Below, piece after piece: positions 2,741 to 37,317 of a DNA stretch of 64,000 bases. The notes below the pieces were generated by a model. That model did no database searches. It saw only the letters and a list, made by a program, of their open reading frames with translations, and was not told the origin of the DNA. Origin of the DNA: Escherichia phage fDHCT2; sequence record OR427838.1; one strand, written 5' to 3'. Made by a program: the position numbers and the translations under genes. Each line of letters starts with the position of its first letter. Within the stretch, counting starts at the first letter, position 1.

Positions 2741-2754
2741 GGAGCCTAAGCTCC
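2735..2754 (-). terminator. rho-independent terminator
   Basis: minus-strand ggagcttaggctcc hairpin followed by TTTTTT. Confidence 0.5.
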
Positions 2755-2977
2755 TTTACCAATTAATACACCGTACAGAGGTTCGTGATTAGACCTGAAC
2801 TTGATAGGCTTATAGGTAATAGTACCTTCATTTTCCGCTTTAATACGAGCAGCTTCAAATTTAAGTATCATCTCATTTTTGTCAGATTTAATCTTATCAA
2901 AATCCGTCGAATTCGTCATTCATAAAACCTCTTAAACTTTTTCGTATTCGTCATTCATTAGCCTGCAGTCCATGTTA

Positions 2978-3178
2978 TCATCGCTGCCACCATTTCTTAA
3001 GTTGATGAGAATCTACCCAAACCTTGGCTACAGGTTCAATCTGAAAAATTCCATCAGAATACTGACCAACCATTTTGTATTCGGTTTCGGACTGCTTAAT
3101 ACAGATATTACCGTATGAGCGAAGTCTGAAAGCGGCTCCAACAAGAAGCCGTTTAAAGGGTTTATTTACTAAGGCCAT
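2978..3178 (-). CDS. hypothetical protein
   Basis: 66-aa ORF in tight minus-strand array. Confidence 0.4.
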   Translation of the reverse strand: MALVNKPFKRLLVGAAFRLRSYGNICIKQSETEYKMVGQYSDGIFQIEPVAKVWVDSHQLKKWWQR

Positions 3179-3473
3179 TGACGATTTCCCAAATTTGTTT
3201 GCGGGTAGATTCCCACATCAATTGAACAAGTTCATCAGTAACAGGTTGACGGTAAATACCGCGTAATTTAATTAAAGCGTACTTATATGCTTCAAAGTTG
3301 TTTTCAAGTACAGCGCCTTGGGCATGGAGATTTAAACGACGGATTTCACGAGCATTCTTCTTAAGAATCTTAGCCGCTTGCGAATTAGCTTCTTTAATAT
3401 TGTGCTCTTCTAAACGTTGCTGGGCTTCTTCAATTTGCTCATCAGTCAATTGAGAAATGTCATGGCTTTGCAT
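3162..3473 (-). CDS. hypothetical protein
   Basis: 103-aa ORF, helical/charged. Confidence 0.5.
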   Translation of the reverse strand: MQSHDISQLTDEQIEEAQQRLEEHNIKEANSQAAKILKKNAREIRRLNLHAQGAVLENNFEAYKYALIKLRGIYRQPVTDELVQLMWESTRKQIWEIVNGLSK

Positions 3474-22487: not shown

Positions 22488-22776
22488 ATTTCTTCCAGCC
22501 AGAAATCATATGAATCTCTTGGTCGTATGTCAAGAGACTACGAGTTATAATACCCTTACAAGGCCCTGAGATGAACTCGAGAGTGAAGTAAGGAACCTGT
22601 TTCATTAATCGGATACTAGGAGCATGACATCTAAAACGAGAGCCCTTAAAGGGCCCTGACATGAATACATATTCTAATGGATAGAAATAAGCATATTCGA
22701 AATTTGCAGTAAGGTCCTCTCTTCGAACCTTACGTGAGAAATAACAGAACTCAAAAAGTTCTTCATCAGTCATCAT
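22480..22776 (-). CDS. hypothetical protein
   Basis: 98-aa ORF. Confidence 0.45.
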   Translation of the reverse strand: MMTDEELFEFCYFSRKVRREDLTANFEYAYFYPLEYVFMSGPFKGSRFRCHAPSIRLMKQVPYFTLEFISGPCKGIITRSLLTYDQEIHMISGWKKYV

Positions 22777-23300
22777 TGCATTCCTATCACAAAGAACAGC
22801 GGCAGAGGTTTAGAACCCTGGCACATAAATTTGTTAATCATTACCTGGTAAGCTTCATAGAACTTATCCATCGATGGAAGGCGCATTGGCTCTTCGATAA
22901 TAATCAATAATCGAGTAACTGATAGACCACGATACTTATGGAAGTTATCTTCGTCTAAAAATGATCGCACGGTATCATATACAATAAACCCAGGACCTTC
23001 TACTTGAAGATGTGGATGAGCCTTAGAAACCCTTTTTATTACATTACAGATTTCGCGTGACCGGTGCGAAGAACTCGACATAACAATCACATCATTACCC
23101 TTGGAAACCCAATCAGCTGCGAACTGGGCAAGGGCACTTGTTTTACCTGTTTGGCGCCCGCCGTCAAGTCGAAGAGTACCAAACTCTTGCATTCTTGAAG
23201 TAGGTTCGTACCAGGTGTATTGGTTTGAGTCTAAACGTTCAATGGCGCGTTCAGCGAAGGCGTGCATTAAGGTTAGATAAATGGGAGTTAAAAATTTCAT
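22773..23300 (-). CDS. small P-loop NTPase
   Basis: Walker A GGRQTGKTS, Walker B LLIIIEEP. Confidence 0.55.
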   Translation of the reverse strand: MKFLTPIYLTLMHAFAERAIERLDSNQYTWYEPTSRMQEFGTLRLDGGRQTGKTSALAQFAADWVSKGNDVIVMSSSSHRSREICNVIKRVSKAHPHLQVEGPGFIVYDTVRSFLDEDNFHKYRGLSVTRLLIIIEEPMRLPSMDKFYEAYQVMINKFMCQGSKPLPLFFVIGMQ

Positions 23301-23460
23301 AGTGGTCTCTTAGTTGTGGGGCCATTCCTTGGCACATAATTCATCCATGTATCCGTATGTAAACCCTTTACCGCACTTGGGCTCGACCTTATTACAGGTA
23401 GGGAAAGGTCCATCACTCAGAGGACGCGACGTTCATGAGGAGAGGGCCGGCTTGCCTTTA

Positions 23461-23760
23461 TTAGAAAGAACCAGAACCTCTAATTGTGTTCTGGCGACCT
23501 TTATTTTCCAATTCGGAATGGTCGATTTCGTAGGCTTGTGCTACACCAAAAGCCTTTTTAACTTTAGCTAAAGAGCCTTTAGATGTAACAATATTAAAAG
23601 TATTACCTTTGGTAAAATCAACCAAATCCACTTGTACACCTTGTTTACCGAGGCTTGCTACAATAGCATCAACATATTCTTGGTCTAAGGTGCCTTGGAC
23701 GCCTATTTGGAATGCTTTAGGAGCTTTGGCTTCTGTAATAAATTCTTGATAAGTTTTCAT
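23461..23760 (-). CDS. internal-protein-like protein with capsid targeting sequence
   Basis: N-terminus [11 protein letters not shown] as in T4 IPI/IPII/IPIII; third CTS gene next to denV. Confidence 0.55.
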   Translation of the reverse strand: MKTYQEFITEAKAPKAFQIGVQGTLDQEYVDAIVASLGKQGVQVDLVDFTKGNTFNIVTSKGSLAKVKKAFGVAQAYEIDHSELENKGRQNTIRGSGSF

Positions 23761-23802
23761 ATTATTCCTTAAGTTGATAGAAGTATTCTACCACGGATTT
23801 AA

Positions 23803-24219
23803 TTAAGCGTAAATAGCCTTGCCATAGTGTTTGTACCAGGTAGGACGTTGTGCAATTTTTTCATCCAAACGGGCTTGTGAAATAGCGATAGAAGCTTCGT
23901 GAGGAACATAATCACCACGGAATTCCTGAGGAATATCACTAATGTCCTGGACTGTAGTATCCTTGATATTAAAGCCACGTTTTAAACATTCGGTTATAAG
24001 CTCGATTTGACGCTTACGTAAAAATTCAAGCTTATCGTAAAAGAATGTAACATGGCCTGTACCAAGGATAAAAGTAGGGCTGATTTTAAAATCACGAACG
24101 CGTTTACCGTTAGCAACATGCTTACGAACTGCACCGAAAACACGTGGTAATTCACGATATTCAGCCATTAAGTGTTGGTCAGCCAATTCAGATACTAAGG
24201 TAAGGTTGATACGAGTCAT
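23803..24219 (-). CDS. denV: Endonuclease V (pyrimidine-dimer DNA glycosylase) DenV
   Basis: 138 aa; [34 protein letters not shown]... near-identical to T4 DenV as I recall it. Confidence 0.9.
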
Positions 24220-24279: not shown

Positions 24280-24582
24280 TTATTTACCTTTAATTGCTTT
24301 AGCTGCTTCGGTAGCCGCTTGCTGAAGGTCATCCATAGTCATGCCGAACTTAGAAGCAAAGTTATCAATTTTCTTTTCGACAGAATTCAAAGGCTTGGCC
24401 TGTTTACCTTCATTAGCGCCAGGAAGAGCGAGAATACGCTCTTTGTCAATATAAAGGCTTACAAGTTTCTTACGGTCTTTATCGGACAAATCATGAAATG
24501 AATGAGCCTTTTTATTTATAGCGGCTTCTAATTTACCCGCAGTTACGCGGGCTTCAGTGATAAATTCTTGATAGGTTTTCAT
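24280..24582 (-). CDS. ipII: Internal protein II
   Basis: 100 aa, [14 protein letters not shown]; between denV and ipIII as in T4. Confidence 0.8.
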   Translation of the reverse strand: MKTYQEFITEARVTAGKLEAAINKKAHSFHDLSDKDRKKLVSLYIDKERILALPGANEGKQAKPLNSVEKKIDNFASKFGMTMDDLQQAATEAAKAIKGK

Positions 24583-24623: not shown

Positions 24624-25220
24624 TTAATTACCACGGGCTGCATTAGCAACGGCGTAAGCGTACTGAATATTAGCGTCTTTAAACGTACCTTTAGAGGTAT
24701 CTATTTCTGCCTTAAAGCCGCCTTTAGCCATAACATCGGCAAATTCTTTACGGAAAGCCATTGCATCAAGACCTTTCCATGATGATTTGTGCTTGGCAAA
24801 TTCAAGACCAGCGAAGTTGACAGCCTTAGCCAATTTATTATCAATAGTCCATTTACCTGCTTTAGGTACAACTACCGGGCCTTTTTGTTTAGAGAACAGT
24901 TTTAAATTCCAGCGACGAAGGTCGCCGTCAGCTTTAACAAAAGCTGCGTCCAAGTTACTAGCAACAACATCCTGAATATGGCCAAATTTAAGCCCATCAG
25001 CTTCAATATTTAGGTCGTTACGCCAGCGAAGTCCTTCCCAGGCGAAAGCTTTAAAGTCAGAAGCTTTTGTAGCTAAATACCGTTCAATAGGAGCTGTTTT
25101 AGCGTCAAAACCATTTCCTGGGTTGTCAACGCCGTTTCCTCGGTAGGTCCACTCATCTTTATTAATGCCTTGGACCTTTCCTACAGAAGCTTCGGCGATA
25201 AATTCTTTATACGTTTTCAT
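24624..25220 (-). CDS. ipIII: Internal protein III
   Basis: 198 aa, CTS MKTYKEFIAEA; adjacent to e as in T4. Confidence 0.75.
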   Translation of the reverse strand: MKTYKEFIAEASVGKVQGINKDEWTYRGNGVDNPGNGFDAKTAPIERYLATKASDFKAFAWEGLRWRNDLNIEADGLKFGHIQDVVASNLDAAFVKADGDLRRWNLKLFSKQKGPVVVPKAGKWTIDNKLAKAVNFAGLEFAKHKSSWKGLDAMAFRKEFADVMAKGGFKAEIDTSKGTFKDANIQYAYAVANAARGN

Positions 25221-25273
25221 ACGGGTTCCTTAAAGGTAAATATTTTAATTAGTCTGTTCAAGTAACTGTATAT

Positions 25274-25301
25274 ATACTATCACAATTCTAGGAGATGTAA
25301 A
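25274..25301 (-). promoter_or_regulatory. T4-type early sigma70 promoter
   Basis: GTTTAC-17nt-TAGTAT with TGa. Confidence 0.5.
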
Positions 25302-25306
25302 CTGCT

Positions 25307-25797: not shown

Positions 25798-25825
25798 TAC
25801 CTCCTGAGTATAGGAGGTATTTATA
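25798..25825 (-). promoter_or_regulatory. gene e late promoter (TATAAATA) abutting an SD-sequestering hairpin
   Basis: minus-strand TATAAATAcctccTATACTCAggaggta tt ATG; perfect 7-bp stem containing the SD. Confidence 0.7.
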
Positions 25826-33921: not shown

Positions 33922-34386
33922 TTATTTGATTTGTTTAGCAGACCAGATACGGTCTTTGATGATTTTCTGAATATCTTCAACATACTCTAAGTCGTGAGCA
34001 TGCGGATTATCTTTGAAGCTATGTGCTCGTGCCAGTTTCTGGCCTTCTGTTTTGATTACTAAAAGCTCTTTAAGAATTGCTTCATACTTAGAAATGATTC
34101 CTTTAGCGATATTTTTTTCTTGAGCGGCTTTAGGGTCCGCTTTTGACGCAGGTGCTTTACCTGTAGCTTTCTGGAACAATTCACCTGATGCAGCTAGGCT
34201 TTTAAAAACTCGGCTAACAGTATTAGCATTAGTAAAACCTTCGGCTTTAAAATCTTTAATAAAACGGAAACGTTCTTCATCAGAGGCGTCTTTGTAAGAA
34301 TATTTACCTGCTTGAATTGCTGCAATCGCGGCGGCTTTTACATCTGAACTAGATTGTTCGGTCAAAAATTCATTGTAAGTTTTCAT
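33922..34386 (-). CDS. internal-protein-like protein with capsid targeting sequence (154 aa)
   Basis: N-terminus MKTYNEFLTEQ (CTS-like); Lys/Ala-rich. Confidence 0.55.
   Translation of the reverse strand: MKTYNEFLTEQSSSDVKAAAIAAIQAGKYSYKDASDEERFRFIKDFKAEGFTNANTVSRVFKSLAASGELFQKATGKAPASKADPKAAQEKNIAKGIISKYEAILKELLVIKTEGQKLARAHSFKDNPHAHDLEYVEDIQKIIKDRIWSAKQIK

Positions 34387-36370: not shown

Positions 36371-37317
<947 letters not shown>

Follow-up and report, generated by a model that had tools for sequence, protein, structure and literature searches.

The gene at positions 23461-23760 of the window (the whole stretch of phage DNA analysed, 64,000 nucleotides) is ordinary and already carries an annotation: it belongs to the Ip7 family of internal proteins of the T4 type. 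It encodes a real protein under strong purifying selection. Taken as a whole, it is probable that this protein is packaged into the head, cut by gp21, and ejected with the DNA, most probably in an anti-defence role; its target is speculative. The gene itself adds one more allele to a family already labelled internal head protein. The more interesting by-product of the analysis is a conserved non-coding element downstream of the gene, which is a candidate new phage RNA from its conservation and its covarying helices. The coordinates of the features are collected in Table 1.

Table 1. Coordinates of the ip7-like gene, its signals and neighbours, the other capsid-targeted genes, and the downstream element.
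Feature	Position	Strand	Basis or remark
ip7-like gene, 99-aa internal head protein precursor (Ip7 family)	23461..23760	-	PHROG 2667, E 8.5e-43
Capsid targeting sequence (CTS), codons 1-10; predicted gp21 cleavage after Glu10 (I-T-E/A)	23731..23760	-	9/10 residues as in T4 IPII/IPIII
Predicted mature protein, 89 aa, ~9.5 kDa, pI ~9.0	23464..23730	-	composition; AlphaFold2 model
Shine-Dalgarno AAGGA, 5 nt 5' of ATG	23766..23770	-	read from sequence
Sigma-70 / T4-early-like promoter candidate, TTTACG-17-TAGAAT with upstream TG, overlapping the denV 3' end	23785..23813	-	consensus scan
denV (endonuclease V), upstream neighbour	23803..24219	-	PHROG 1183, E 1e-62; Pfam Pyr_excise
ipII homologue, CTS gene	24280..24582	-	PHROG 7857, E 3e-53; 91% aa identity to T4 IPII
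ipIII homologue, CTS gene	24624..25220	-	PHROG 5341, E 1e-114; 88% aa identity to T4 IPIII
154-aa CTS gene, MKTYNEFLTEQ...	33922-34386	-	PHROG 2280 "unknown function"
90-aa CTS gene, start overlapping the 57B end	36371-36643	-	PHROG 7673, internal head protein
57B homologue, 151 aa, directly followed by a CTS gene	36640-37095	-	PHROG 755, labelled "RNA ligase"
vs.8 body, downstream neighbour	22773..23300	-	PHROG 1488, E 6e-69; vs.8 in JS98 and T4 annotation
Conserved non-coding element between the ip7-like gene and vs.8	23317..23460	-	core motif at 23364-23403
39-aa GTG/ATG ORF over part of the element	23297-23416	-	
Copies of the element elsewhere	L006 (T4) 3300-3440; L003/L004 upstream of ip7-like genes; L037 1480-1700; L030 8430-8640; L038 1440-1560		

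The ORF runs from ATG to TAA and encodes 99 aa with the C-terminus ...GSGSF. The 501 bases around it show 95-98% identity to MN04, JS10, JS98, MX01, QL01, and IME08, which are JS98-like phages of the genus Dhakavirus, and JS98 is 97% identical to positions 23300-23800. The window is a JS98-like Dhakavirus. Its gene order is e - ipIII - ipII - denV - (ip7-like ORF) - vs.8, and that of JS98 is e - ipIII - (ipII slot) - denV - (orf112) - vs.8. In T4, the order is e - ipIII - ipII - denV - vs.8, with 26 nt from denV to the annotated vs.8 start and no ip7-like gene between them. The DenV proteins of the window and T4 share 97% aa identity. The initial annotation had given the T4 order as denV-ipII-ipIII-e, in agreement with the T4 annotation, and had described a third CTS gene across denV. 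Its position on the far side from ipII and ipIII is correct and has no counterpart in T4, but the window contains five CTS genes, not three.

Residues 1-99 of the ip7-like protein align to positions 1-101 of PHROG 2667, "internal head protein". JS98 orf112 (YP_001595241) and its alleles are 97-99% identical to the window protein; RefSeq names the product internal head protein, and the same label is used in JS98, JS10, MX01, QL01, and IME08. The gene name ip7 is used in the records of VR7/VR20/VR26, CC31, and T2. A tblastn search recovered homologues in 283 phage records, 282 of which cover at least 80% of the protein. These records fall into ~70 with 88-99% identity from Dhakavirus and VR-type phages, ~57 with 60-73% identity from Klebsiella T4-like phages, and ~155 with 46-57% identity from T2, RB69, CC31, and their relatives. 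T2 ip7 shows 50% identity to the window protein over 98% of the query (E 1e-20). The sole significant match among predicted viral structures (BFVD) was "Ip7 protein [phage MX01]" with the E-value 2.9e-11. The protein had initially been taken as new CTS cargo, to be compared with the internal-protein repertoires of other T-even phages. This novelty is not upheld: the gene is in RefSeq and in a named family, ip7 is already present in T2, CC31, and VR7/20/26, and as orf112 in JS98, and an ip7 is included in a published functional screen (PMC12373910).

No genuine relative outside the Ip7 family was found in an exhaustive HMMER profile search against 1.84 billion representative proteins. This search returned 9 matches, in which the real ones are two Ip7 clusters and short proteins or fragments of 50-84 aa. 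Repeats or low complexity account for the large matches, among them HEAT/NACHT and RTX adhesin proteins, which are artefacts. Pfam gave sub-threshold noise only and NCBIfam gave nothing for the window protein. The PDB sequence search gave no match at E <= 0.001, and a repeat match there to a "flagellin hook IN motif" protein was insignificant (E 0.017).

The genomic position of ip7 differs among phages. The T2 gene is at the classical hypervariable ipI locus, in the order 57B - ip5 - ip7 - trna.4. CC31 ip7 is also at the ipI locus beside 57B, and the RB69 locus is 57B - (ip7-like) - ipI. The e-denV region houses ip7, beside vs.8, in the window as well as in phages of the JS98-like, VR-like, and Klebsiella T4-like groups. 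JD18 and EI, two phages of Klebsiella, also have the ip7-like gene adjoining vs.8, but they order denV and the other internal protein genes differently from the window. The ipI-locus position, between 57B and the tRNA genes, is a habit of the Ip7 family, not its definition; the window gene sits between denV and vs.8.

Dhakavirus MX01 seems to carry two Ip7-family genes. The first is the denV-side allele, with 96% DNA identity to the window, and the second encodes a 102-aa protein named Ip7 (BFVD A0A172Q2C4) that is only 50% identical. The apparent coexistence of both Ip7 branches in one genome would suggest that they have different targets.

The N-terminal CTS is of the T4 type. A six-frame scan with M[KR][TS][YF]x[ED][FY][ILV] gave exactly 5 matches in 64 kb, at positions 23760, 24582, 25220, 34386, and 36643, and all are at ORF starts on the minus strand. 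The concern that the N-terminal match might be a coincidence is thereby answered. The first 11 residues of the ip7-like ORF are identical to those of the window ipII homologue and differ at 2 positions from those of the window ipIII homologue (MKTYKEFIAEA). The family alignment A1 shows no variation at M1, K2, T3, E6, F7, I8, T9, E10, and A11. Across genera, conservation in the Ip7 family is highest in the CTS and the adjoining residues (MKT..EFITEAK.PK), and further conserved blocks are LD.EY..AI, KGS.AK.K, and R.NT[IL]. Amber-suppressor work assigned targeting to Tyr4 and Phe7 and processing to Ile8 and Glu10 (PMC9026906). Both targeting positions, Y4 and F7, are present in the ip7-like CTS. 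The protein has only one [LIV]-x-E site, at residues 8-10 and followed by Ala11, which gives a predicted mature N-terminus of AKAPK / AFQIGVQGTLDQEYVDAIVASLGK.

The predicted mature protein contains 11 K+R and 9 D+E (net charge ~+2). The AlphaFold2 model has a pLDDT of 72 overall and 77-87 over residues 11-80. The predicted elements are E15-21, H27-39, E43-49, E54-61, H64-69, and E73-79, that is, beta-alpha-beta-beta-alpha-beta, and the structure matches of the model are generic ACT/RRM/HMA-type (ferredoxin-like fold) only. The median dN/dS was 0.07 for 45 pairs among 10 distinct 99-codon alleles, and the JS98 allele differs from an IMG/VR allele (L008) by 14 synonymous and 0 non-synonymous substitutions. 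Genes 21, 22, 67, and 68, for the gp21 prohead protease and the gp22/gp67/gp68 scaffolding core, are annotated in JS98; they are outside the window, which ends near gene 17/18.

The window phage encodes at least five CTS proteins. The mature ip7-like domain shows <=20% identity to the other four. The five CTS copies differ at synonymous positions, such as ACT/ACC/ACG for Thr3 and ATT/ATC for Ile8, which shows that selection, and not recent gene conversion or DNA copying, maintains the peptide. Two of the other CTS genes, at 36371-36643 and 33922-34386, occupy the window ipI locus. The 154-aa gene lies downstream of tRNA-Arg and tRNA-Met, and its PHROG label is not an internal protein. Internal proteins have a second locus of cassette exchange in the e-to-vs.8 segment. 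Dhakavirus phages vary in the ipII slot: the window has a T4-type ipII, versus an unrelated 132-aa CTS gene in JS98, orf114 (L001 4460-4858; MKTYNEFIAEAVIPAP...), and JD18 and EI have yet other arrangements. At the other locus, the record of phage COW86c gives the 57B-position gene, which adjoins ip7 there, the annotation of an Acb1-like anti-CBASS protein. The 57B locus thus appears to place an anti-CBASS gene next to genes for injected proteins.

The CTS, the I-T-E/A site, the dN/dS of ~0.07, and the machinery genes in JS98 suggest packaging, trimming to 89 aa, and ejection with the DNA. By homology with T4 IPIII, the 99-aa precursor would be made in the infected cell, and its 10-residue N-terminal CTS would direct it to the scaffolding core as the prohead assembles. 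Cleavage by gp21 after Glu10 would leave an 89-aa, mildly basic beta-alpha-beta-beta-alpha-beta domain, which would be kept in the head and then enter the next host along with the DNA on ejection. In the new host, Ip7 would most probably inhibit a DNA-targeting defence within the first minute, and a type IV (modification-dependent) restriction enzyme would be the most likely target class. No virion report on Ip7 was found in the accessible literature. The JS98 genome paper reportedly may include virion mass spectrometry.

An anti-defence role of the ip7-like protein would be reasonable by analogy, and it is the working hypothesis of the field. Each of the T4 proteins Ip1-Ip3 inhibits a single GmrSD variant, without cross-protection (PMC12373910). 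IPIII is required on ECOR17 (PMC9391042), and the CTS protein Bas37_0260 blocks McrBC (bioRxiv 10.1101/2025.11.20.689424, 2025 preprint). Since all four characterised CTS proteins (T4 Ip1-3 and Bas37_0260) inhibit type IV restriction enzymes, such an enzyme is the most likely target class. For this class in the wider sense, type IV or other DNA-targeting defence, the chances are about even. The mature domain shows no sequence or fold likeness to a characterised anti-restriction protein in the PDB search and the structure matches; the characterised type IV inhibitors are not homologous to each other, and therefore the missing similarity is no argument against such a function of Ip7. An ip4-10 set including an ip7 was screened against a GmrSD panel and gave no reproducible interaction; an apparent interaction between ip7 and CLS_011 was not reproducible (PMC12373910, Supplementary Fig. 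9). The passage on this screen does not state the ip7 allele and its source phage, and thus the screen may not cover the Dhakavirus allele, which is ~50% diverged from T2 Ip7. The very strong purifying selection is counted against the anti-defence explanation, as it is not the usual signature of an arms race. Tentatively, the Dhakavirus/Klebsiella branch of Ip7 may be an injected inhibitor of a still unmatched defence, acting through a ferredoxin-like fold that would be new to anti-restriction proteins. Conceivable targets would be type IV enzymes or DNA glycosylases recognising the non-glucosylated hydroxymethyl-cytosine DNA that these phages have. The denV-side ip7 allele is strongly conserved over ~70 genomes of Dhakavirus and its relatives, and would be a sensible choice for further screening.

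In the classical view, T4 internal proteins are head-filling or DNA-associated proteins. It is conceivable, though unlikely, that Ip7 is packaged with no specific host target and is such a generic protein, aiding DNA condensation or ejection. The basic character of mature Ip7 (pI ~9.0) fits this role, although a net charge of ~+2 is weak for a DNA counter-ion. Its strong conservation (dN/dS 0.07), unlike that of a fast-evolving inhibitor, and the lack of a reproducible GmrSD interaction of ip7 in the published screen (PMC12373910) are also in its favour. However, ip7 is accessory and mobile between loci: T4 lacks it, T2 and RB69 have it at the ipI locus, and Dhakavirus and Klebsiella phages have it beside vs.8. 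Moreover, all CTS proteins of known function are specific restriction inhibitors, which argues against a generic role.

The expression signals bear on a further alternative, in which Ip7 is not packaged and the CTS is a vestige of cassette shuffling on an ordinary early cytoplasmic protein of the producing cell. Directly upstream, the sole promoter-like sequence belongs to the sigma-70 / T4-early class, and no TATAAATA late promoter (<=1 mismatch) is present within 200 nt upstream of the gene. Late synthesis would thus need upstream read-through or a non-consensus promoter. However, the promoter-like sites in the region are not above the number in shuffled sequence. The window ipIII also has a similar early-type promoter-like site upstream (25221-25306, minus strand) and no exact late promoter, yet T4 IPIII is a proven packaged protein. 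Thus, the promoter data neither support nor refute the packaging of Ip7. Against a vestige, the CTS and adjoining residues are the best conserved of the family, and a vestigial peptide would decay. This alternative is highly improbable, and packaging remains the preferred reading. As for the signals themselves, the early-type pattern before both the ip7-like gene and ipIII is GTTTACA / TTTACG, 17 nt, TG-n-TA...AT, and e alone is preceded by an exact late promoter TATAAATA (25818-25825).

A chance ORF or pseudogene can be dismissed, given the near full-length homologues in 282 of the 283 records, the dN/dS of 0.07, the good Shine-Dalgarno sequence, and the confidently predicted fold over residues 11-80.

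The spacer between the ip7-like ORF and the vs.8 ATG is 160 nt and G+C-rich, and contains the conserved non-coding element. Its core motif of ~40 nt is CCCU-ACCU-GUAAUA-AGGU-CGAGCCCAAGUGCGGUAA-AGGG. T4, JS98, and the two Klebsiella phages JD18 and EI share an unchanged core, ACCUGUAAUAAGGUCGAGC-NNN-AG-N-GCGGUAA (23399-23368, minus strand). With an rV5-like copy as the BLAST query, 968 phage records from unrelated groups were recovered. The carriers include T4-like phages of the Tequatro-, Mosig-, Dhaka-, and Jiaoda types, Vequintavirus, and the 45-kb phage Ivi, and pattern scans of IMG/VR add CC31-like contigs, ~46-kb contigs, and one 90-kb contig. The CC31-like contigs have two tandem copies. 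In JES2013 (Vequintavirus), the element is intergenic, ~600 nt upstream of a tRNA cluster, and in a related rV5-like contig a sigma-70 promoter, TTGACA-17-TATACT, is directly 5' of it. The element was not found in 5,426 complete E. coli genomes or in 185,579 species genomes; 33 bacterial matches to a 17-nt half pattern are chance, as ~70 were expected and the second half of the motif is in none. It matches no Rfam 15 family, and its sequence was not found in the literature searched.

The element does not code for protein, as the reading frame is not conserved. In the T4 RefSeq annotation it forms the first ~44 codons of vs.8 (L006, locus 2754-3413). The window DNA homologous to this T4 vs.8 start needs three frames, with PVIRSSPSAV, MCQGMAP, and the vs.8 body starting MKFLTP at 23300. 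In a Tequatrovirus contig closely related to T4 (L009), the ORF ends before the vs.8 ATG. The frame split in the window and the stop in L009 indicate that the vs.8 starts of T4 and JS98 are probably annotated too far upstream. The JD18 element has a stop and no start.

A hairpin and the helix that closes the core covary in a 19-sequence alignment, which is evidence for a structured RNA. Paired cells amount to 88.9% versus 80.6% in shuffles, and the covariation score is 0.245 versus 0.084 in shuffles, a value reached by 0/500 shuffles. One base pair shows five standard pair types with zero mismatches. The hairpin ACCU-GUAAUA-AGGU is changed to GCCA/UGGU in the 90-kb contig and to GCCU/AGGC in the second tandem copy of the CC31-like contigs. 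The helix closing the core is CCCU/AGGG in the window, CCA/UGG in T4 and rV5-like phages, CUGG/CCAG in CC31-like contigs, and CGCG/CGCG in Ivi. The G-U pairs place the element RNA on the gene-sense strand. The single-sequence minimum free energy of the element is not better than that of shuffles (z = +0.77). An alternative RNAalifold pairing of the invariant core in T4-like copies is unsupported by the divergent copies. In the 3' half, T4-like copies have two GGA-loop hairpins, ACAU-GGAUGAAUU-AUGU and GCCA-AGGAA-UGGC, which resemble CsrA-binding sites. A CsrA-binding role suggested by these hairpins is speculation. Dhakavirus has ip7 on the 5' side of the element and Klebsiella phages have it on the 3' side; the element thus marks the junction where the ip7 cassette was shuffled. 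If the element is a functional RNA, annotation has overlooked it in hundreds of coliphages, T4-like and rV5-like ones among them.

Among known proteins, T2 Ip7 (LC348380, BBC14756) is homologous to the window protein over the whole length, with ~50% identity and the same length class (99-108 aa), and shares the CTS, the three conserved blocks, and the predicted fold. The two differ in about half of their residues and in location, the T2 gene being at the ipI locus beside 57B and the window gene beside vs.8. The ip7-like protein resembles T4 IPII and IPIII in the CTS and cleavage motif, the gene cluster (e - ipIII - ipII - denV), small size and basic character, and presumably in the route of packaging and ejection. 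No similarity is detectable past the first 11-16 residues, the mature parts share 16-20% identity, and PHROG cross-matches cover residues 1-25 only. T4 IPII (Ip2) inhibits GmrSD-ECOR21 and T4 IPIII (Ip3) inhibits GmrSD-ECOR17 (PMC12373910). T4 IPI* (Ip1), the inhibitor of GmrSD of E. coli CT596, is likewise a small CTS-directed, processed, and ejected protein of a hypervariable locus (PMC9026906; PMC12373910). However, it belongs to a different family, from which the match lists set Ip7 apart: IPI* is absent from the sequence and fold matches of the Ip7 model. Bas37_0260 of KarlGJung (MZ501089) is also a small CTS protein of a T-even phage. It is not an Ip7, as it has 77 aa and BLASTP aligns residues 1-10 (the CTS) only. 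This protein shows that CTS cargo can target type IV enzymes besides GmrSD.
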